Assembly: GCA_049999805.1 (NCBI GenBank)
Contig: JBNGIO010006249.1
Span: 255,589-319,588, forward strand
Origin: Folioceros fuciformis
Taxonomy: Eukaryota
Direction: 5' to 3'
DNA: 64,000 bases
The notes under the pieces were generated by a model. The model saw only the letters and a program-made list of their open reading frames with translations, was not told the origin of the DNA and made no database searches. Both the position numbers and the translations under genes were made by a program. Shown here piece after piece: positions 4,402-38,730 of the stretch; positions within the stretch are counted from its first letter, which is position 1; each line of letters opens with the position of its first letter.

Positions 4402-4669
4402 GATCATGATTGCGTTGTTCAAGGTATTGGGTATCAATTACCAGTCTAAGATCATGNNNNNNNNNNNNNNNNNNNNNNNNNNNNNNNNNNNNNNNNNNNN
4501 NNNNNNNNNNNNNNNNNNNNNNNNNNNNNNNNNNNNNNNNNNNNNNNNNNNNNNNNTTGCGTTGTTCAAGGTATTGGGTATCAATTACCAGTCTAAGATC
4601 ATGCTTGCGTTGTTCAAGGTATTGGGTATCAATTACCAGTCTAAGATCATGCTTGCGTTGTTCAAGGTA
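4402..4669. repeat. 48-bp tandem repeat (cttgcgttgttcaaggtattgggtatcaattaccagtctaagatcatg) spanning an N-gap
   Basis: Near-identical units occur on both sides of the gap at 4457-4556, so the true copy number is unknown. Confidence 0.9.
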
Positions 4670-12030: not shown

Positions 12031-15000
12031 CTCCCCCTCACCGTGGATCCAATCTCGCAAGCCTTGAAATTTGGATGCTGCTAAAGAGAATGTGTGATGG
12101 CTGACAGTCACGGGTGATTGAGTCACTCCCCCTCACGCATGAGCCTGAGATAAGAATCCTTGCTGAAAGGCCCTATTGCAACTACATACTTCTTACGAAG
12201 TGATTTGGATAACCCCTTGGTCAAGAGATCTGCTGTTTTCTCTACTATGCTGATATACTTTAGAATCACTTGCTTGTTGGCCACGGTCTGATAGATGAAA
12301 TTGTATTGAATTTCCACATGTTTCGTCCTGGCGTGCAAGATTGGGTTATAAGTCATTGTGATGGTGGACTGATTATCGCAAAACAGCTCAATTGGTTCTG
12401 ATTGTGACTCGTTGATATCCTGAAGAAATTGCCTAATCCATAGAATCTCTTTCGCGTCTAGGGTTGTTGTTGCATACTCAGCCTCGGTTGAAGATGTGCA
12501 GATTGTTTGCATCTTTTTACTTGCCCAAGAATCTGTTGAAGCGTTGATGCGTATGCAATAGGCTGTTACTGATTTCCTCGAGTCTGGGTCGCCAGCCCAA
12601 TCTGCATCAAACAAGCCAATTAATTTGAGGTTAATTGCATGATCAGCCTTATACAGTAGCCCTAAGGATTTGGTNNNNNNNNNNNNNNNNNNNNNNNNNN
12701 NNNNNNNNNNNNNNNNNNNNNNNNNNNNNNNNNNNNNNNNNNNNNNNNNNNNNNNNNNNNNNNNNNNNNNNNNNCATGATCAGCCTTATACAGTAGCCCT
12801 AAGGATTTGCTCATTTTGAGATAGCGTAGGATTCGTTTCACGCTTGTCCAGTGAGCCTTTCCGAGGTTTAACATATATTTGGCCACAATGTTAACGGCTA
12901 GTGCAACGTCTGGCCTTGTCCATATTGATAAGTACAACAAGCTGCCTACAGCCTCATTGTAAGGTACATTCTTCATCTCATTGATGTCTTCTGGTGATGT
13001 GGGGCAGTCAAGTGCTGACACTTTGTCGCCGAACGCTATTGGTGTAGCAACTGGTTTGGCATCTGACAGATTAAACCTGGTAAGCAGCTGGTCAACATAA
13101 TGTTTCTTATGGATGAAGAAGGAGCCATCGGATGGGTTTTGCTCAAACTGGACTCCGAGTGCGAAGCAGAGAGGCCCCATATCTACAACGTCGTATTCCT
13201 TACCTAGTAAGTCCTTCACATGTTGAATGATTTTAGGAATGTTACCGAAAATGAAATTGTTGTCGACATAAAGTGTCACGATTGCAAGCTCGTCTCCTGA
13301 TTTCAGAACATACACGCTCTTGTCTGCTGTGAGGCTGGAGAAACCATATTTATGGAGGTACAAGTCGACTGTTTCATTCCACACTTGCGCTAACTGCTGG
13401 AGGCCGTAAATGCTTTTAAGAAGCTTGCACACCTTGTTGGGGTCTTGAATGAAACCTGGTGGTTGCAACATGTATATATCTTTATGCAGCGTTCCATACA
13501 GGAAGGCTGTTTTAACGTCAACCTGATGTATCTGCAGATAGTGGTGAGCTGCGAAAGCAAGAAGAATTTGGATAGACGTGGATTTTACGACTGGGCTGAA
13601 AAGCCAATGCTCCTTGTAGTCGAAGCCCGGCACCTGGGTGAACCCACGGGCTACGAGTCTTGACTTGAATCTTGATATAGTGCCATCTGGTTTAAGTTTT
13701 CTTCTGAAGGTCCACTTATAGGAAATTGGTTTCCGCCTAGCAGGCAGGTCAGTAAGCTTCCAGGTCTCGTTTGCAATTAGGGAATCGTATTCGGAATGTA
13801 TTGATGCTTTCCATTCAGGTATACTACGTGCTTCTTCTATGCTTGCTAGTACACCTTGCATCTCAATTGCAGAGAGGGCTTGATGAAGGGCAAGCTGAAC
13901 TGAATCACTCTCGGAAGCTCGTGGTCGAACTGACACCTGTACGGGTGGAGTAACTGAGGGTACCTCTACCTCTACAGATGGTGTGGCTACTTGACGAGAA
14001 AAAGACTCTCTAGGAGCAGTGGGTGGATTTCTCCATTGATGGCTAGGTGGCCTATGGCAAGTGGATCGCCTAAGAGGTGATGTTTCGGGTTGAGGGGTAC
14101 TGACCTCATAATCTGGCTAGTTGAGGAGAGGCAAGCTGTCCATATGGTTGTCTGGTGTGGCATGACCTAATGGTAAGTCGTGTGGATGCGGTAGAGCGGG
14201 AGCTTGGTTTGGAGTTATTGATTGAAGTGGCTGGACGAGAGAAGGTGAAGCCGGAGGTGGATCATTCCCTGTCGGACCTTGAAACTCAAACTCATAATCG
14301 CTGGGGTTATATGTGTCCCCCTTAAGGTCAGATTAGGAATCAGGTGAGAAACTAAAAATACTAGGGTCAAGCAAAGGAATAGCGGTAGAGACGGAATGGA
14401 GGTATGTTTGAATAAGAGTGGCTTCATGGAAGTGAATGCTATGGGATAGGATTACCTGCATTGTAGATGGGTCGAAAAGTTTGTAAGCCTTGGACTGATC
14501 TGCATAACCAATGAACAGAAGTTTGCGTCCTTTGTCATTCCACTTCTTACGAAAATCACCAGGGATGTGAGCAAAAGCTGGGCTGCCGAAGATTCGAAGG
14601 TAAGAAATTTTGGGCTTGTGGCCGGTTCAGCGTTCATAGGGTGTTGTGTTGACAAGCTCCTTAGTAGGTAGGCGATTCTTCAGATAGTTTGCTGTAGAGA
14701 CGGCTTCGGCCCAATAACCTTTTGTAAGCCCTGCCAGCTTAAGGATGGAGCGCGAGATTTCCAGCAACGAGCGATTCAGTCATTCGGCAAAGGGGTTTTG
14801 AGAAGGCGTGTAGGGAACTGTGTACTGGCGAAGAATTCCTCTAGAGGTAGAGAATGAATGAAAGGATTGACTGGTATATTCCCCGCCGTTGTCTGCTCTA
14901 AGGGTGCGAACCTGAAACCCCATCTGCCTTTCTATAGTGGTGACATACTCTTGAAAACAGGAAAAGGCCTCATCTTTGTGACGGAGAAAGTAAACATGAC

Positions 15001-28500: not shown

Positions 28501-30901
28501 GATGCGGCCAACCCTCAAGTGTTTGTGATCGCAGATCTGGGAGGACATTCTTGGATTTGATAATGCTGAATTCTACATCAAAAGGTGGCCTCAGCTCGAT
28601 GGCATGAAGTTTGAAGATGTGCTGATCAGCTTTCCAGATGCCATACCTTGTGGGGTTAAAGTGTCTGCCAGAGGCGGGCAAATAGTTTTGAATCCAGAAG
28701 ACGACTATGTCCTTTCAGAAGGGGATGAATTACTTGTGGTGGCTGAAGATGATGACACATATTCGCCTGGACCTCTGCCTGAGGTAATTTCTTCAAAATC
28801 CACCTTTGAGTGGATGAGTGGAATTCTTTACACTAGCTTTGTGCATAAAAAACAGCAGTAGTTTTTATCATGCTCTAGCAAGCGGATCCATCAGGGTTGG
28901 TTTGGCTTTCGCTACCAATGCTGTAGCTGAGAAACAGATAGAAACGCACCCTACTTCAGTTGAATGAACTGCACCTCAAATCCAGGAGCTCTTAAGCATG
29001 TGGGTGGTTGCACATGATGGTGGGCAGCATGTGCTTGGTATATGATCGATTCGCTTTAAAAGCGGAATATGAGCAGCACCACTCTTGTGGCAACTCTCCT
29101 TTCAGATCAGCTGAACTGGAGGACACAAGGGAGTAGCTCATAGAGATGGGTTTGGTGCTCCAGGTGATGATGCAAGCCCTTCCACCAGGGGCCGTCANNN
29201 NNNNNNNNNNNNNNNNNNNNNNNNNNNNNNNNNNNNNNNNNNNNNNNNNNNNNNNNNNNNNNNNNNNNNNNNNNNNNNNNNNNNNNNNNNNNNNNNNGGC
29301 GAGATATTGATGATATGATAGTGGTAAGCACTGATATTTCCAGGATCCTCTACCTTGCTGTGCTCATTCCAAACCACCGCTGCTGCAGGTGCGAAGAGGG
29401 CCCTTGCCCCAAATTGTAAGTGCTCCAAAGCTTCCAGAGAGGATTCTCTTTTGCGGTTGGCGTCGGGATATTGATGATATGATAACGGTAAGGCACCTGG
29501 GCCATAGTGCGACTCGCAGCACTTTCGGATATTCAAGTATCAGTCTGGGGATAACGTCAATGGGCTGCTGTTGGCTCCATATTGGAACACTACTTCGAAC
29601 AGCATCCTTACTTACCTCCCGTCCTGGCCTTCTGTCCCCAGTCATGGTTGGGGGTCTCGGATGGAAGTGGTGGATGTAGCTTGGAAGCTCTCGTCACTTG
29701 TCTTCTTACAGTACTGCACTTTCTAATGATTATCCAAACCATGTAAACAGGTTCTGGAGGCATTTTTAGCCAGTGGTTCAGAACTGTGGCTCTTCAGCGA
29801 GGTTCCCTTAGCAGACAGAGAAAGGAAACTCCAAGATGGCGGCCTTAATTCTGACCAGCTGGTCAACACAGTGCTTGTTCATCGCGAGGGGAATGCTGTG
29901 ATACGTCGGCATCTTGAGAGTCTGCCGCTTGAGACCTTTGATTCTGTAAGATGTCCGTGCAGTTAGTCCTGATTTTGTACACAAGTCTTCTCCTTTGCGA
30001 TTGATCATGTGGTATCCCAACCTCTTGAAGTTCTAAATGAACATGTTTGCAGATATTGATTCTTGCGGATGAGGCTCTAGAAGATACAGTTGTGAATGCG
30101 GATTCACGTTCTCTAGCTACTCTTCTTCTCATTCGAGACATTCAGGTGACAGAATCAGCACACTACAGATCCGAATGCAGTCTTGTACTGACAGTCATTC
30201 TGCTTATCTGCATATTGTGGACACTGATGCAATTTACCTTAAGACACCCCTTCTGTGTTTGGTTGTGTTCGACAGTCGAAGCGAATGCCGTATAGGGACA
30301 AAGCCAGCCAGGTGTCTCGTCAAACAGAATCTGGTATCATGCAGAGCTCTTGGATCAATGAAATGCAGCAAGCATCTGACAGCTCAATTATCATAAGTGA
30401 AATCCTGGATTCTCGGACAAAGAACCTTGTTTCTGTGTCAAAGATCAGTGATTATGTGCTTTCTAATGAGCTTGTGAGTATGGCATTAGCAATGGTGTCT
30501 GAGGACAAGCAGATCAATAGGGTTCTAGAAGAACTTTTTGCAGAGGAGGTAAGAGCACGTTGCATTTTGATTTTCTTTCAACTTTGCTGCCTCAAGTGGA
30601 GAAGTTGGCATTTTGACGATGCAACAATTTAGAAGCACGTTGCTACTTCGACGTGGTTAGCTCATGATGTTTCTTTACGCAGGGCAATGAGATGTACATA
30701 CGCGCTGCAGAAATGTATCTCTATGACCAAGAGGAGTTGAGTTTTTTTGAGGTCATGATCCGTGCTCGACAACGGCATGAGATTGTGATCGGATACCGCC
30801 AGGCTTTGGCAGAAAGAGCTGTCATCAATCCTCCCAACAAGGGTATCCCTTTAAAGTGGTCAGTTTGTGATGTCTTCATCGTCCTTTCCGAGGAAGAGTA
30901 A
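25536..30901 (+). CDS. DMI1: CASTOR/POLLUX/DMI1 family nuclear-envelope cation channel (common symbiosis pathway), ~1119 aa; exons 25536-26630, 26744-26812, 26893-27513, 27637-27819, 28026-28085, 28231-28434, 28535-28783, [29164-29323 or 29389-29487], 29751-29945, 30053-30145, 30276-30548, 30683-30901
   Basis: Motifs AYRVDVLFS, WTYVADAGNHAD, VSDAISEKVDSLKKGKSEVIESNH, VICRSGSPL, HDVIGRLMIQCARQPGLAQ, ILFCGWRRDIDDM and SNELVSMALAMV. All introns are GT-AG phase 0 with the frame intact. Confidence 0.96.
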
Positions 30902-31435
30902 TTTGAGACGTCAAGTATGCTTACCGACCACAACTTGCAAAACAGAAACTGAGCGCACAGGTGATCTGCCGATTGTTGTTGCATATCAACCACCATAAAA
31001 TTTTGTAGAACGCCTGGTAGGTTCTCATGTTATCCCCAAAGTTCTTGTCACATGCTTGACATAGAAATCTCAACATTGTTGTACAATAGAATGTGTTACG
31101 GAGCTTCAAGTCAGCTATATCTTGGTCACAACGTATCCCAAAGCGTGACTCTCCAACCTCCTTCGGGAGGAGAGTGGTAAGTGGGTATATTGCACGCTAA
31201 TACACCTCTTAGGCTAGAGATTCACCAAGACGACTGATATACTCATGATGCCTGGCCGCAAAGGCACGCGAAGTCAATCTACACTGAGAACCCTTCCCCA
31301 ACGACAGGTGCGTGAGACTGGAAAGCCCACGTCCCTTATGCACAAGGGAATAAGCATGAAGAGGTTCTTTCTGACAGTATCATACAGCCGGTGTCACAAA
31401 GGGGTGAGATGAGCACGATGGCATCATAACTGGGC

Positions 31436-34196
31436 TTAGTCATAGTCGCCTGAGGGAAGTAAATCCTTTTCAAAGTCCGGGTCCACCAAGATGCCCCTGG
31501 CAGCCCGATTCGGAGAGCTAGCTTTCTCCACGCATCGTACAATGCGGTTAGCCAGTCGCCGCACTGCCCACGTTCGATGCCATGGAGCCATTTGGAGTAC
31601 CTACTCAGAGTGAGGAGAACGAGGTGAGAGGCCATAATGCCGGAACATCTACAGACAGACCTCATTTCACGAAGAGACGCGATGGCTAACCTCATCTGAG
31701 TTGAAACTCTCAACAATGACACCACCTCGACGAGGAACAGCAAGGTCCCTCCAGTCCATTTGGAAGAACCCGAAGTCACTGGCCAGCTCCTGTTGGTGGA
31801 AACACAGGCATTTCTATGCTTTCAGAATGCGGGGCTAGGAAACGGCAGCCTGGAAGAAGATGATTTGCAAATACCTTATTCAGGGGTGCGTTGGCATCCC
31901 CGATCACACCCAATACGTGGCCCCTGCAGTCTGCAAGAGTGCCCTGCAGAATGGAGACAGAATGGGGGATGAGTTCGAGATCATGAGATATGCTATCAGT
32001 GGTCAAACCCATTTCATGCAATTGGACAGACCTGGCCGTGGATCTCCAGCACAGGATGGCCTTTCAGTGTCTGCAATGGTCATCAACGAGGATAGAGATT
32101 AGCAAAACCCAGCCTTCTCAGCAAGGAGTCCCGAGAGTCTCACTGAGCGATAGGCTATGGCAGGTTCAAGTTTACTGAAGACACCTGGCAGGAAACCCAG
32201 TTCAGGTACTCCTCCCAGGCCAAGTAGGGCGCATCTCGGTCAGGCCGTAAAACCTCCCAACCATTCCCACGCAGCTGCTTTTCCACCACATTTGCAACCT
32301 GTGCACAAGAATCCAAGTCGATTCATGTGAAACAGAGTACAGTCTGAGCGAGACAGGAGTTCACAGTGAGCCATGACGTGGAGGGTACCTCCAGATTGAA
32401 ATCCCGTTCCCCGGGGGCGCCAGGCTCAAACCCTGGATCAATCCAATGCCCTGGAAGTACACTAATAATGTCACGCCGCCCGATGTGCTTAGACGCTTTA
32501 AGGTATTTGGTGACAGCATAAGGCTCATCTCTTTTGGCCTGCAACAAATTCCCACATGCAGCAACAAATAAGAGGGCATTCACCGATCGTGCTGTGCTCA
32601 GATTGAAACTGAGTGCAGGGAGCCTGTACTACCCGGGAGCCGATGGTATGTGAAACCTTCATGTAATCCAATTTAACCTTCACAGGGATGCTGCTGATAT
32701 GCCTCGAGATCCCATCCAGCACTACTTGAGAAGGAACTTCCACAAGGGCTCCAGCCACCTGGAATTCACGAGGACTTTGTCATCAATCCCTGAATACAGA
32801 CCAAACTTTTCAGTCAAAACGGCTACTTCGCGTTAGCTTACAGCTTTACAGTCTGCTGTTAAATTGAAGCCTCTTGAATATCGCATCATGATGATGTCAT
32901 CAACAGGTTGCGTCGTAACCTTCACCTACAATAGCAAGGAACAAATGTTGTGAGAAGCGACCATCCCTCAGCAAACAGGGCTTCAAACTTTCCATGGTGA
33001 GCATCATCCCACGTACAGAGTCTGAAGGATGCCAATTCAGCTGCAAACTCCATCTCGACCCAGCGGAACCGGTCTTGCCGGACCCGGCCTGCATGGCCCA
33101 AGAATAGAATCAGCAACGTGTCGAAACATGAAGGCGGCTGCAATGCAGTGAAGGTAGAGTGAAGCATGATCACCACCTTGACAGTAGCTCCGACCACCAG
33201 TTTTAGATTTCCAACTCGGAACGCTTTCTTCACGGTCAACGATGGCACAGGTAGGACATCCAGCATCGGCTGCAGGGCTGCACAGCCGACCACGCTCCCT
33301 TCAGATGAACCAAGTACATGCACTGCGCCTTACACCTGCCAACACCCAGCTAGCCTGAGAGGTGTGCAAGTATAACTCCCCAGGCCCACCCTGTGGCCCA
33401 TCTCCACATACTCACATGCTCCCCATTTCCTCCCACCTCTCTAGGCGCCCACCCAGGACTGCGAGAGTGAAACACCTCTACTATGACCGTCATCAAACAG
33501 TCCAAGAAGAATGCAGACAAGACCAAACGCAACGTAGTGCAGCAGCAGCAGCCACAACAGAACCTGGAGCAGCGATTGACTCACCCAGCTTCCCAAACAC
33601 AGGTGTCAGAACTCTAAGCCGGGCATATGGCAATGCCTGTAGACTACTGCCGTTGTCTCCCGGCTTGCACTCATCATGCTCCGCGGCAGAGAGCCTATTC
33701 TGTGCAGCATCCACCGTCAAGCCCACGTTCAACCCCATAGGAACCCACTGCCACCGCCACCTCCCATTATCACCTGCGTCACTCCATCGTCAGTGGAGCA
33801 GACGAGACGGGGACCAAGCTCACTCTACCCCGCGACATGATGATGACCAACCTAGTCCTAGGCAATTAGGGAGCGCCATGGCCCGCTGAAACTTCAGCCG
33901 CAATCCTTGCCCGGTCGTCAGCTTGGCACCCACCTTGTACCGATATTCCTGGAAACGACCGACTCCAATTCAGCCCAACATAGGCCGCAGCAACAATGCC
34001 AAATCCCCAGTCCCCACCCAAACCCGCTCTTTACTGAAAGACCAAGAAGAAGAACACAGACCCGCCCAGGAAACCTGCGGTAGTATCGTGGAGGCACGTA
34101 TCGAGAGTAGGGCTCGGTGAAGCAAAGACGACCCACGCAGGTCTCGTACTCGGACAGGAAGTCTTCATCATCCTCCACCATCTGCCCCGTCTCCAT
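31436..34196 (-). CDS. Unannotated 14-exon gene (~490 aa): N-terminal amphipathic beta-strand (OEP-like barrel) region fused to an Amidase_3-like N-acetylmuramoyl-L-alanine amidase domain
   Basis: Exons 34196-34062, 33948-33852, 33773-33585, 33480-33416, 33269-33177, 33088-33017, 32925-32842, 32758-32657 (alternative in-frame donor after 32633), 32538-32389, 32298-32185, 32070-32032, 31943-31875, 31789-31691, 31600-31436. The 13 GT-AG introns (78-146 nt) give one stop-free frame. The C-domain reads IISVLPGH...PGAPGERDFNLEVANVVEKQLRGNGWEVLR...VLEIHG...GVIVESFN. Confidence 0.85.
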
Positions 34197-34814
34197 GGCC
34201 ACTCCGGTCCCGCCTTCAGGCTGTGTCCTGCTCTAACCGCGCATTGCTCCTGGGAAAAGTACGTTCCCCATACACCCAGCAATGCAGGCTCGAGCTTATC
34301 AACTGCTGATCTCCCAAATGCTCCACATTGGACCCATCAGCTGATCCCAGCACCAGCTTCCTTTGCCAATTCCTTTCGGTTGCAACGGACCGGGACCAAC
34401 ATCGGACGTGAGAGCCTGATCTCGGGCAACACCCTAATTCGGGCAAGAGCTCGCTACGTAAACGCGCCTCTAGGCAATTCTAAAAAAACAGCTGGACACC
34501 TCGTATGTGTGGTTGTAATGTACCGTGGAGTGTGAGCCGTTGTTGGAATGTGAATCGTTGTAATATAGTAGTAGTAAGGTAGTGAGCAACGTAGTATAAG
34601 TAGACTAAGTAGTAAGCATTGGTCTGATTTGTAAAGTGATCTACTTAATTTTTCAGTTTTGTTCTTCAATCTGCCAAAAATCATAGGACATAAGGTCGTT
34701 TATGGCATTTTTTTTTCCAAAAACATCTAGAGGCTTTATGGCATCCTTTTTCCCCAAAACATATGAGGGCAAATAATACTCTTTTCCTGCTTAACCAGTA
34801 ACCAATAACGACGT

Positions 34815-35871: not shown

Positions 35872-36490
35872 GCCTCACTCTTAGGTTAGATGATAAATAT
35901 GGACCTAAACATTCTATAACTCACTCTTAGGTTACATGAGAAACGTGCACCTAAACATTCTATAACCCACTCTTAGGTTACATAAGAAACGTGGACCTAA
36001 ATATTCTACAACTCGCTCTTAGATTACATAAGAAACCTGGACCTAAACATTCTATAACTCGCTCTTGGGTTACATAAGAAATGTGGACCTAGACATTCGA
36101 TAACTCACTCTTAGGTTAGATGATCAACGTGGACCTAAACATTCTATAACTCACTCTTAGGTTAGATGATCAACGTGGACCTAAACATTCTANNNNNNNN
36201 NNNNNNNNNNNNNNNNNNNNNNNNNNNNNNNNNNNNNNNNNNNNNNNNNNNNNNNNNNNNNNNNNNNNNNNNNNNNNNNNNNNNNNNNNNNNGACCTAAA
36301 CATTCTATAACTCACTCTTACGTCACATAAAAAACGTGGACCTAAATATTCTATAACTCACTCTTAAGTTACATAAAAAACGTGGACTTAGACATTTGAT
36401 TACTCACTCTTAGGTTAGATGATAAACATGGACCTAAATATTTTATAACTCACTCTTAGGTTACATAAGAACGTGGACTTAGGCATTCAA
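35872..36490. repeat. 46-bp tandem repeat array (ggacctaaacattctataactcactcttaggttacataagaaacgt) spanning an N-gap
   Basis: About 11 visible contiguous units with scattered substitutions and no unique spacers; gap at 36193-36292. Confidence 0.93.
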
Positions 36491-38730
36491 TAACTTCAAT
36501 TAGATTCAAAGTTGTTAGACTTGGAGAAAGCTATGGCTATTAGGATACTTACGATACTCATAATCACCCGTGCTTTCCCTCCTAATCGCTCTTGCTTGAA
36601 CCCCTCCCCATTGCCCTGCTACCTCGCCTTTCAACACAATGGTGAATAGTAAGCTCAAGGCTCGATATCAATTACTCTAAGTATTATGGGTTTTAGGGTC
36701 ATACCACATTGCTCACTCAATTTTTGTTGCACTTGGAGAAAGTTGTGGCCCTTCAAAGTTTATTCAACGACACATCTGAGAAGGAGGATTGTTTTATTAA
36801 TAATCTCTATACTAGCCTCTCTTTTTGTGAAACATAGCATTCTCCTTTGAATTGTCACAATAGTCTTTCATAACACAAATGTAGAGTACAATCCATTTTC
36901 AACGTGCGTAATGCCATGACCCCTACATGGCTTAATATTTTTAATGTACCAAACCTTTAATTCACTAGTTTCTATTCATAGTATTGTTCTTTTAATATTA
37001 GTATTTTAATGGTTTTTATTCACAATACTATTTCCCTAATATTAGTATTCTTAATATTTCTAAGTTAGATCTTTCTCTCTACACTCAAGCTCTATTTTAA
37101 TTAAAATAAATAAATCATATGGGTGAACTTCAAAGTTTAGTAAACTTTGGAACAATAATTAGGTGTATAATATCTATATAAACCTATAAAGGAACTTGCA
37201 AGCTCTGGAAAGTTCCAAGCTTTTTCATGTGTTCTAGATCTTGGCAGCTTTGAGAGCTCGTTGTGCCCGTGCCATAAAGTAAGTGATTTTTTTTGTCGGG
37301 TTAAATTGGTTGTGTTAGACCTAATTCATGCATGTTCTCTGATACCATTGATTTTTGTTTCATTTATGTAATTTCATATTTTGTTGACTATCTATTTGTT
37401 ATGTGTAGAGGGCATGCTCATTAGTTTTAGGTTATTCGCCTTGTGTTGAGGTACATTCTTACACTTCAAGGCATAAATTATTATACCTTGAGAGAAAAGT
37501 TTTAGGAGTTTATGATCTTAATGGATTATACTTAATAAAAAATATTTATTTCTCCTACACTCATATTGCAAGGTAAAATCATAAACATCTAATAAAATCT
37601 TGATAAGGATAGATGAAAAGATTAATAATCCCCAAGAAATGAAGATTGTTTTGAGAATTGTAGCATTTGTTTATTACACATGAAAAATATTAATTGTACA
37701 CAACGGATGCTTTACAAACATAAATTTCATAAGAGTTGTATCAATGAGTGGATAAGCTATGGTAAAAATTCTTGCCCTCTTCATAGAGAATTCTTATACG
37801 AAGGACCTATACAATCAAGATCTACCAGACATGTTCTTGAAAATTTGGATGATCGTTAATGTGTGGTAAATGAGGAACTCTTTCAACATGACCTTAAAAA
37901 TATAATGTATCGTCTAAGTTTGGCGTTAGATGAAGTATTTGAAGATGAACTAAGTTTAGCATTAAATGAACTCTTTCTCCATCACCTTGAAAATTTTGAT
38001 GATGTTCTAACTATGAAATTGAATGCATTCTTTAGAGAAATAAGTTTTGGGTTTCACCAACAACGTCATCTATTTCTGGTTTTCATGATGTTATAATGTA
38101 TATGAACATTGATTTTTGGTTTTCATAATGCTATAACATATGAATATTTATTTTTGGTTTTCATGATGATATAACGTATATGAACATAGTGGCTGTAAGT
38201 AGGTAGTATAATGTATTGTATTTATTTGGAACAAGATAATTATTTTAGATATAATAGATAATCATTATGCATAGGTGAGGGTTGAAATCTTTCAACAATT
38301 TATGTACATTGAAATATTTCGTAAAATATTTCAATATAACCTTAATATTTTAGAGTTTATTACTTTATTTTTTTAAGATTATAATATTAATATTTTAATA
38401 AATATGTCTTCGATTTTGTGATGGTTTCAAAATTCTTTCTTATTCAGTTGCTCCTTAATGCACATACTACTACTTTATTGGATAGCAGTTGTTAATGGCA
38501 GAAAGAACGGATGTCAATTAAGTCCTTGATCTTGCGGATATGGGAGCATTCTAATTGTTGCACAAAGGTAACATGAAAAAGTTTCCAACGGCTAAATCAA
38601 GACCAAGAGGATGAATGATTTGCCAAACACGCAAGAGTCTTGCACGTTGGATGCATATTTGCGATTGTGGTCACTCTTGTACAAAACAATGTTTGAATCA
38701 TGGTGTCGGTGTGCCTTGCCCCTAGGTAAA

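Follow-up and report, generated by a model that had tools for sequence, protein, structure and literature searches.

A gene on the minus strand of a 64,000-nucleotide stretch of the Folioceros fuciformis genome (GenBank assembly GCA_049999805.1, contig JBNGIO010006249.1, positions 255,589 to 319,588, the whole of which is called the window here and supplies the position numbers used below) encodes a protein in which a predicted 12-stranded beta-barrel is joined to a domain with the predicted fold of the peptidoglycan amidases. The gene is real and expressed, and its N-terminal and amidase exons are carried on one spliced molecule. The favoured reading is that of an outer-envelope barrel which would hold a peptidoglycan amidase in the plastid's intermembrane space. 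As membrane, plastid, topology and activity all have to be right together it is put forward tentatively, at slightly less than an even chance.

In this reading residues ~47-266 would form a strongly basic barrel that inserts into the plastid outer envelope without a cleavable transit peptide, with both of its ends towards the intermembrane space as is the case for the chloroplast protein OEP21. The barrel would thereby keep the leader and the putative zinc amidase domain (residues ~288-456) on the intermembrane-space side, beside the plastid peptidoglycan, where the amidase may remove stem peptides from the glycan strands, working on the wall from its outer side while plastids grow and divide. 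The peptidoglycan of moss has been placed in the intermembrane space (PMC12681378, introduction). A preliminary description of this DNA, made from its letters alone, had already proposed that a barrel could tether the amidase in the intermembrane space, pass on its products, or do both. The barrel as a predicted fold and the single transcript speak for this proposal, whilst membrane embedding, envelope location, orientation of the amidase and passage of products are inferred.

Gene structure and transcript

Reading of the minus strand in three frames, combined with comparison to homologues, gives a gene of 13 exons that encodes 479 amino acids, with every intron border being GT-AG. All 12 of the predicted intron joints are found in one spliced contig of 3,026 nucleotides that is 100% identical to the window, with this contig coming from X1, the single public run found for the locus, which is labelled 'RNA?' and in which 40% of the words sampled from the locus occur. 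The model is also collinear with full-length homologues over its whole length, most closely with P0012 from Diphasiastrum (59% identity over 462 columns), followed by proteins of Sphagnum (56%) and Marchantia (MPTK1_4g21500, 55%). The parts of the gene are as follows, UTR being untranslated region.

34197..34400, minus strand: 5' UTR, unbroken with exon 1, holding an in-frame TAG at 34235-34233
34062..34196, minus strand: exon 1, residues 1-45, with the start codon, the acidic leader and a conserved CxGxxCF...Y.PP..Y segment
33852..33948, minus strand: exon 2, predicted strands 1-2 (residues 48-56 and 61-70) and a conserved LPNCLGLG loop
33585..33773, minus strand: exon 3, DNGRWRWQ, predicted strand 3 (90-102), a variable loop and predicted strand 4 (119-132)
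33177..33277, minus strand: exon 4, predicted strands 5-7 (142-149, 153-162, 165-174), including K158
33017..33088, minus strand: exon 5, a variable loop and predicted strand 8 (186-196, RWSLQLNWHP)
32842..32925, minus strand: exon 6, predicted strands 9-10 (199-206, 209-221), including R216
32633..32758, minus strand: exon 7, predicted strand 11 (224-235), a variable loop, predicted strand 12 (253-266) and a terminal VSHTIGSR
32389..32538, minus strand: exon 8, the linker plus the first part of the amidase-like domain (PGHWIDPG...GERDFNLE), which includes the invariant residues H299 and E312
32185..32298, minus strand: exon 9, amidase-like domain (VANVVEKQLRGNGWEVLRPDRDAP...)
32032..32070, minus strand: exon 10, TLKGHPVLEIHGQ, with invariant H367
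31875..31943, minus strand: exon 11, amidase-like domain
31691..31789, minus strand: exon 12, ..VPRRGGVIVESFNSDE, with invariant E419
31436..31600, minus strand: exon 13, the amidase-like domain's C-terminal helix plus the stop codon, with a 3' UTR to at least 31300

The donor of exon 1, GTCTGT, is supported by the contig joint 33949-34061. The N-terminal half had been counted as eight exons in the preliminary description, there are in fact seven in the gene model and in the contig. Its assumption that barrel and amidase exons share one mRNA is correct, and the possibility it raised of a transcript ending after exon 8, which would have made two genes, is contradicted by the single spliced contig. 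An alternative donor after 32633 had been suggested that would add VSHTIGSR, and this is the donor in use, as the contig joins 32633 to 32538 and the homologues have ..SQIIGTR at the same place.

Downstream of the gene the contig runs 136 nucleotides past the stop (31300-31435) and then continues with ~1.18 kb of further downstream sequence, which suggests either a long 3' UTR or read-through into neighbouring sequence.

Start and leader

The open reading frame starts at 34196 and the protein begins METGQMVEDDEDF, with an in-frame TAG 13 codons 5' of the start, at 34235-34233, so that the acidic start behind an upstream stop is as it was first described. The first exon is unspliced in the contig from 34061 to beyond 34400, and since the TAG lies inside this unspliced exon the transcript gains no presequence from an exon further upstream. 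There is no long hydrophobic helix, the highest mean over 19 residues on the Kyte-Doolittle scale being 1.26, and no transit peptide. Both absences had been claimed before, and an upstream exon supplying a transit peptide is contradicted by the unspliced 5' exon. The short acidic leader is a property of the whole family: ahead of the first conserved motif (CxGxxC) its length is 8-24 residues in all but four of 27 sequences (23 of 27), and D/E outnumber K/R in 26 of the 27, with the leader of the window protein containing eight D/E and no K/R. For a eukaryotic beta-barrel that lacks a signal, the established route leads only to the outer membrane of an organelle.

Two further features of this region were observed. 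The 5' UTR (34244-34402, minus strand) has five upstream ATGs, four of them in the frame of the main open reading frame and all four closed by the TAG at 34235-34233. Conserved cysteines are found in the CxGxxC of the leader (residues 20-25, at least 90% in the alignment), in the LPxCLGLG loop (residue 73) and in the turn between strands 10 and 11 (residue 225, C in 77%); encoded by exons 1, 2 and 6, they would all be placed at the terminus side of the predicted barrel, and could form disulfides or a metal site.

A predicted 12-stranded barrel

Structures were predicted with AlphaFold2 from a 34-sequence family alignment in which the Marchantia protein P0019 was placed first, giving a model with a predicted local distance difference test score (pLDDT) of 82.5 and a predicted template modelling score (pTM) of 0.75. 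The mean pLDDT of the five models was 75-82.5, with strand blocks mostly at 83-92, and residues 11-30 of P0019, the counterpart of the conserved segment in exon 1, are at 84-85. The model consists of 12 antiparallel strands of 8-14 residues within residues 41-258, which map to residues 48-266 of the window protein, followed by an alpha/beta domain at 284-451, and has no predicted lid helices. This agrees with the 'about 12 alternating-polarity strands' of the preliminary description, as hydrophobic and polar positions alternate strictly in the family alignment.

When compared with the PDB by Foldseek, the model returned outer-membrane barrels for its N-terminal part and Amidase_3 enzymes for its C-terminal part. 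The comparison by VIA-align covered 48,161 representative chains without the Foldseek pre-filter, and gave the following superpositions of the N-terminal domain (rmsd, root mean square deviation).

9fdg, a designed transmembrane barrel of 12 strands: Z 12.8, rmsd 3.4 Å, 166/179 aligned
KdgM porin: Z 12.2, rmsd 3.6 Å, 158/171 aligned
Chloroplast OEP21 7bgh: Z 11.3, rmsd 3.8 Å, 147/177 aligned
FapF, COG4313 and NalP: Z 11.2 each
Soluble LolA-like and DUF1329 half-barrels: Z 7.7-9.2

The superpositions on membrane barrels span first to last strand in both partners. A second model, of the protein P0036 which is 32% identical to the first, has a pLDDT of 69.2 and a pTM of 0.44 with a poorly formed last strand; its strand pattern is the same, and so are its neighbours (KdgM at Z 13.1, FapF 12.5, OEP21 10.6, LolA3 7.8 and CwlD 15.3). 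In a comparison of language-model features the named clusters nearest to the barrel part are OEP24 (0.91, 175 shared features) and Porin_3 (0.87), which is to be taken as a lead only.

The idea of a barrel in the N-terminal half thus holds at the level of prediction, with a closed 12-stranded fold whose best neighbours are transmembrane barrels, OEP21 among them, and not the soluble non-barrel fold that had been considered as the other outcome. The higher Z scores of membrane barrels together with their full coverage in register, the conserved residues of the polar face, the lack of lid helices and the established route of signal-less barrels to an outer organelle membrane favour a membrane barrel, and going by these models the N-terminal half is probably embedded in a membrane.

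Strand faces, charge and the three units

Across 27 full-length sequences the hydrophobic face of the strands is 75.7% hydrophobic with 12% aromatic residues and 1.3% D/E, and the polar face has 24.5% K/R, 8.5% D/E and 32.6% S/T/N/Q/H. The barrel segment is basic in every one of these sequences, with a median isoelectric point (pI) of 10.3 and net charges between +9 and +23 (median +16); for the amidase segment the median pI is 5.9. On the polar face residues K43, R41, K123, G88, E139 and K252 are conserved at 74-85%. Long, variable loops of low confidence (P0019 residues 96-110, 167-177 and 228-244) lie opposite the chain termini, with the terminus side made up of two-residue turns and two conserved loops, one of which is LPxCLGLGDDxRWRWQ; by analogy this predicted layout is that of bacterial outer-membrane proteins. 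A parity argument, built on the two-residue turns assigned by DSSP, the geometry of L-amino acids and the handedness given in a catalogue preprint, gave the hydrophobic faces of strands 6, 7, 9 and 11 as outward, and is not counted as evidence because it requires unseen bulges in strands 8 and 10.

The preliminary description had seen a three-fold repeat in this half, and the four strings it quoted are present at residues 61, 91, 152 and 210 of the 479-residue model. As sequence similarity the repeat does not survive, with Smith-Waterman comparison against 500 shuffles giving z = 1.21, -0.64 and 1.30. Comparison of the protein with itself by blastp gave the diagonal only and no internal repeat, and hhalign among the three strand quartets gave probabilities of 0.3-2.6%, that is no repeat homology. 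What does recur is a basic residue. The 12 strands of the family alignment were scanned for conserved charged columns with neighbours at -2 and +2 that are at least 75% hydrophobic, and exactly three positions pass, each with neighbours at -4, -2, +2 and +4 that are at least 96% hydrophobic.

Strand 2, R67 (exon 2): K/R in 20/27
Strand 6, K158: K/R in 26/27
Strand 10, R216: K/R in 24/26

These three residues, all in the hydrophobic phase, each fall within one of the three units first described. Thus the three-fold repeat stands in so far as there is a basic residue every fourth strand, one per unit, and falls as a similarity of sequence, which is at chance level. As read from the alignment, the strand pattern has three-fold pseudo-symmetry, and no homology between repeats can be detected.

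The amidase-like domain

When five members of the family were scanned with the Pfam model Amidase_3 (PF01520), P0006 scored 16.1 bits (E 0.012) and P0002 13.6 bits (E 0.069) and three had no match; single exons of the window gave no match to Amidase_3 in Pfam. In the predicted structure the C-terminal domain superposes on Rv3717 at Z 14.6 (rmsd 3.0 Å, 154 aligned) and, in the unfiltered VIA-align comparison, on Ami1, CwlD, CwlV, LytH and AmiB/C at Z 12.6-13.9, and over the two models the values to CwlD, CwlV, AmiC2, LytH and AmiA/B/C are Z 13-15. Judged by these models, the C-terminal half clearly falls in the Amidase_3 fold group. Four residues of P0019, H291, E304, H359 and E411 (H299, E312, H367 and E419 of the window protein), are invariant in 34 of 34 sequences, with H291 at a strand end, E304 at a helix start, H359 at a strand end and E411 in a strand, positions which we take to be those of the Amidase_3 zinc ligands (His, Glu, His) and of the catalytic Glu.

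The domain is also found in other arrangements. A metagenomic protein of 1244 amino acids, P0142, has two LysM domains (E 4.8e-22) and a C-terminal amidase-like domain (E 5.4e-8 to the family profile), a fusion that, going by sequence, links the putative amidase to the binding of peptidoglycan or chitin. In P0054, P0056 and P0066 (1100-1181 amino acids) the amidase-like domain stands at the end and the N-terminal 750-980 residues have no Pfam domain, with P0056 also matching profile positions 119-447, which are the later barrel strands; these three may be fusions or artefacts of gene models. The N-terminal parts of the long relatives P0040, P0045 and P0049, which likewise have the amidase-like domain at the C-terminus, gave no Pfam domain.

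Family and lineages

The 50-residue amidase exon was used to reach full-length relatives, and one of these full-length relatives then found 50 proteins at E <= 0.001. The named sources are the ferns Adiantum and Ceratopteris, the lycophytes Diphasiastrum and Selaginella, the mosses Sphagnum and Physcomitrium, the liverworts Marchantia, Riccia and Calypogeia, Taxus, and the green algae Closterium and Pycnococcus, with further records presumably from Ginkgo, Spirogloea, Mesotaenium, Chlorokybus and Mesostigma, as read from their identifier prefixes. No angiosperm or Chlamydomonas protein is among the named matches. The lineages of the named matches are ones that keep genes for plastid peptidoglycan. 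The proteins are all named 'uncharacterized', 'hypothetical' or 'unnamed', except for three JGI metagenome matches (P0041, P0043 and P0046) which are labelled 'chemotaxis protein histidine kinase CheA' and match the amidase-like part only.

When a profile of 34 members was compared by HMMER with 1.84 billion representatives, 135 proteins came out at E <= 0.001, many of them fragments and 33 of them at E <= 1e-30, from which it follows that the family is small and without a stand-alone barrel branch visible to HMMER. Members derived from transcripts (Trinity, MMETSP) also have both halves in one open reading frame. A Pfam search with 14 stop-free pieces of the minus strand gave matches at chance level only, and NCBIfam gave nothing meaningful for three members.

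Alternative readings

A number of points weigh against a barrel in the outer envelope that carries an amidase. Conservation is stronger on the hydrophobic face of the strands than on their polar face (1.76 versus 2.15 bits; p = 0.004, Mann-Whitney), which is unlike the pattern usually quoted for lipid-facing surfaces, although the smaller hydrophobic alphabet confounds the measure. The basic residues in the hydrophobic phase of strands 2, 6 and 10 are awkward if that face meets lipid, and the alternation along the strands, taken alone, would be explained just as well by a soluble barrel whose interior is hydrophobic. In Pfam the N-terminal half of five members matches no family at E <= 1, including OEP, porin and KdgM, and membership of an OEP family as judged by sequence is therefore not upheld. 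The 34-member family profile has no match at E <= 1 among all PDB sequences, and the Amidase_3 scores of 13.6-16.1 bits are below the Pfam gathering cut-off of 27. The alignments behind the two AlphaFold2 models overlap heavily, which makes their agreement a consistency check and not independent proof. Lastly, the passage of a soluble domain of ~210 residues across the outer envelope without a presequence has to be assumed.

Several of these points would suit a beta-barrel that is soluble or peripheral and has its hydrophobic face turned inward, like a ligand binder of the LolA or FABP type; the protein would then be cytosolic or attached to a surface. The three conserved K/R in the hydrophobic phase, 120 degrees apart, would then lie near the axis and hold an anionic amphiphile, or the basic exterior would bind anionic peptidoglycan or membranes, with the amidase acting on released wall fragments. 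The more conserved hydrophobic face, the matches to LolA/LolB-like and DUF1329 half-barrels (Z 7.7-9.2) and the leader analysis, which found no targeting signal of any kind, are in keeping with such a protein. However, the Z scores of membrane barrels are higher by 2-5 units and their superpositions take in all 12 strands in register, lid helices are not predicted, and by a geometric estimate a round 12-stranded barrel would leave an axial void that aliphatic side chains could not fill. Polar-face residues conserved at 74-85% would also be unusual for a free surface, and a wall amidase in the cytosol would be without a known substrate in these organisms, which makes the soluble barrel unlikely. 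That the barrel is a prediction artefact on amphipathic strands, with an open sheet or sandwich as the real fold, would be the least probable outcome of all, as although the alignment has only 31-34 sequences and the second model is weaker with a poor last strand, all five models of the first run have confident strand blocks and two members that are 32% identical give the same structural neighbours.

The remaining alternatives keep the membrane barrel. It may sit in the outer envelope and carry a domain that is a non-catalytic module for wall binding, or a hydrolase of another gamma-linked or amide substrate, which would be consistent with scores below the Pfam threshold, the lack of a sequence match to solved amidases and the presence of the fold in a poly-gamma-glutamate hydrolase (Z 8.8-9.4) and a cyanophycin dipeptide hydrolase (Z 7.6-7.7). 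True MurNAc-L-Ala amidases are nevertheless 4-6 Z units above those two hydrolases, the invariant His, Glu, His and Glu are at the expected places in the secondary structure, P0142 has the domain fused to LysM, and the range of the family agrees with the lineages keeping plastid peptidoglycan, so that this is held to be distinctly unlikely. The barrel might instead lie in the outer envelope, or in the mitochondrial outer membrane, with the opposite topology and its amidase in the cytosol, degrading wall fragments leaked from plastids or of bacterial origin. A protein made in the cytosol without a presequence would fit this, but both termini of OEP21 are in the intermembrane space, the superpositions on OEP21 and KdgM pair first strand with first strand, and the long variable loops lie opposite the termini as they do in bacterial outer-membrane proteins, all of which make an inverted barrel very improbable.

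Significance

A peptidoglycan layer is retained around the plastids of mosses, ferns, lycophytes, some gymnosperms and many green algae. The genes for synthesis of this wall are known and are needed for plastid division (PMC12681378, PMC9434261). The lineages of the family described here are among those said to keep the plastid peptidoglycan genes (PMC12681378, introduction). A conserved, nuclear-encoded protein of amidase fold that is limited to such lineages would fill a gap on the degradation side. A motif search of 2014 gave DipM as the sole factor of the wall hydrolase type in photosynthetic eukaryotes and Ami homologues only in cyanobacteria (PMC4015805); a divergent amidase missed by Pfam would explain why that search found no amidases.

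If these suggestions are carried to their end, the family would be the missing wall-splitting amidase of peptidoglycan-bearing plastids and at the same time a new class of outer-envelope beta-barrel, which at present is doubtful as a whole. The host-encoded barrel would then hold the enzyme against the outer envelope's inner face, allowing the wall to be cut from outside during constriction of the envelope. The LytM factor DipM may control the amidase, and the strongly basic lumen with its three-fold Arg/Lys set may pass released anionic peptides to the cytosol.

Each half of the protein is of a known kind; what is new is the way they are combined, the family of the barrel and the role put forward. 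In the full-text literature no paper was found on the window protein or on a plastid amidase, with Utsunomiya et al. 2021 (Plant Mol Biol 107:405) lying outside the coverage; this study reportedly deals with moss peptidoglycan hydrolases and could bear on the claim of novelty. Nor were any mentions found in papers of the identifiers of the Marchantia, Physcomitrium and Selaginella members, and the words 'amidase' and 'peptidoglycan' are absent from the main text of two preprints on outer-envelope barrels. A 2026 catalogue of outer-envelope barrels has ten categories, with seeds from Arabidopsis, wheat, Chlamydomonas and Saccharum (10.64898/2026.07.15.738633), and if the barrel is in a membrane it would represent an outer-envelope barrel family outside these ten. 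If the whole reading is true this would be, as far as was found, the first plastid outer-envelope barrel with a wall enzyme. Direct targets for knock-out would be Physcomitrium XP_024400487.1 and Marchantia MPTK1_4g21500.

Surroundings of the gene

A tandem repeat array with a 46-bp unit lies ~1.7 kb upstream of the gene (35874-36495); a 100-N assembly gap at 36193-36292 divides it into 6.9 copies that match at 88% and 4.4 that match at 81%. Further scaffold gaps of exactly 100 N are found at 4457-4556, 12675-12774 and 29198-29297, and the window alternates between GC-rich (~54-56%) and AT-rich (31-41% GC) blocks.

Comparison with known systems

Among plastid proteins the nearest parallel is OEP21, a solute channel of the chloroplast outer envelope. 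It is a barrel of 12 strands whose lumen is positively charged, with a long loop in the cytosol and its two termini in the intermembrane space (PMC10279527). The predicted N-terminal domain has the same number of strands and superposes on OEP21 (7bgh) at Z 11.3, or Z 10.6 for the second model, and the two have in common a basic polar face and the lack of a cleavable transit peptide. However, with 5-10% identity in the superpositions and no Pfam match there is no detectable sequence relationship, OEP21 is without an appended enzyme domain, and the window family has a conserved N-terminal leader and is missing among the angiosperms named in the searches. The best natural match for the barrel is to the KdgM/NanC porins (4fqe, 4pr7 and 2wjr; Z 12.2-13.1, rmsd 3.2-3.6 Å, 157-158/170-171 aligned), which again show no match in sequence; KdgM is a barrel only, whereas the window protein has a C-terminal soluble domain and belongs to a eukaryotic lineage.

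In layout the protein would resemble OmpA, in which an N-terminal barrel anchors the protein in the outer membrane and a C-terminal domain meets the peptidoglycan below it. As read here the window protein likewise has an even-stranded N-terminal barrel and then a domain that would meet the wall, and if so it would be a eukaryotic parallel to the OmpA layout. The barrel of OmpA is at rank 50 in the Foldseek list. No homology is implied, as OmpA has eight strands and a non-catalytic OmpA_C domain where the window protein has 12 predicted strands and a hydrolase fold.

The cell-division amidases AmiA, AmiB, AmiC and AmiC2 share the predicted fold of the catalytic domain (Z 12.6-13.7) and presumably the His/Glu/His/Glu set that is invariant in the window family, and wall splitting at division is also the role proposed for the window protein. 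The bacterial enzymes are targeted by a signal peptide and a soluble AMIN domain (PMC4015805), which differs from the barrel predicted here, the similarity in sequence is below the Pfam threshold, and the closest matches, Rv3717/Ami1 and CwlD, are short domain forms.

DipM is of another fold and family, although its lineage range overlaps that of the window family. It is present in glaucophytes and moss, and in moss it is needed for chloroplast division (PMC4015805, PMC4164004). Constriction of the outer envelope requires that the wall be cut on its outermost side, and in E. coli the LytM factors activate the Ami amidases (PMC4015805, PMC4164004). It is this activation that would make DipM a candidate partner, and not a relative, of the putative amidase described here.

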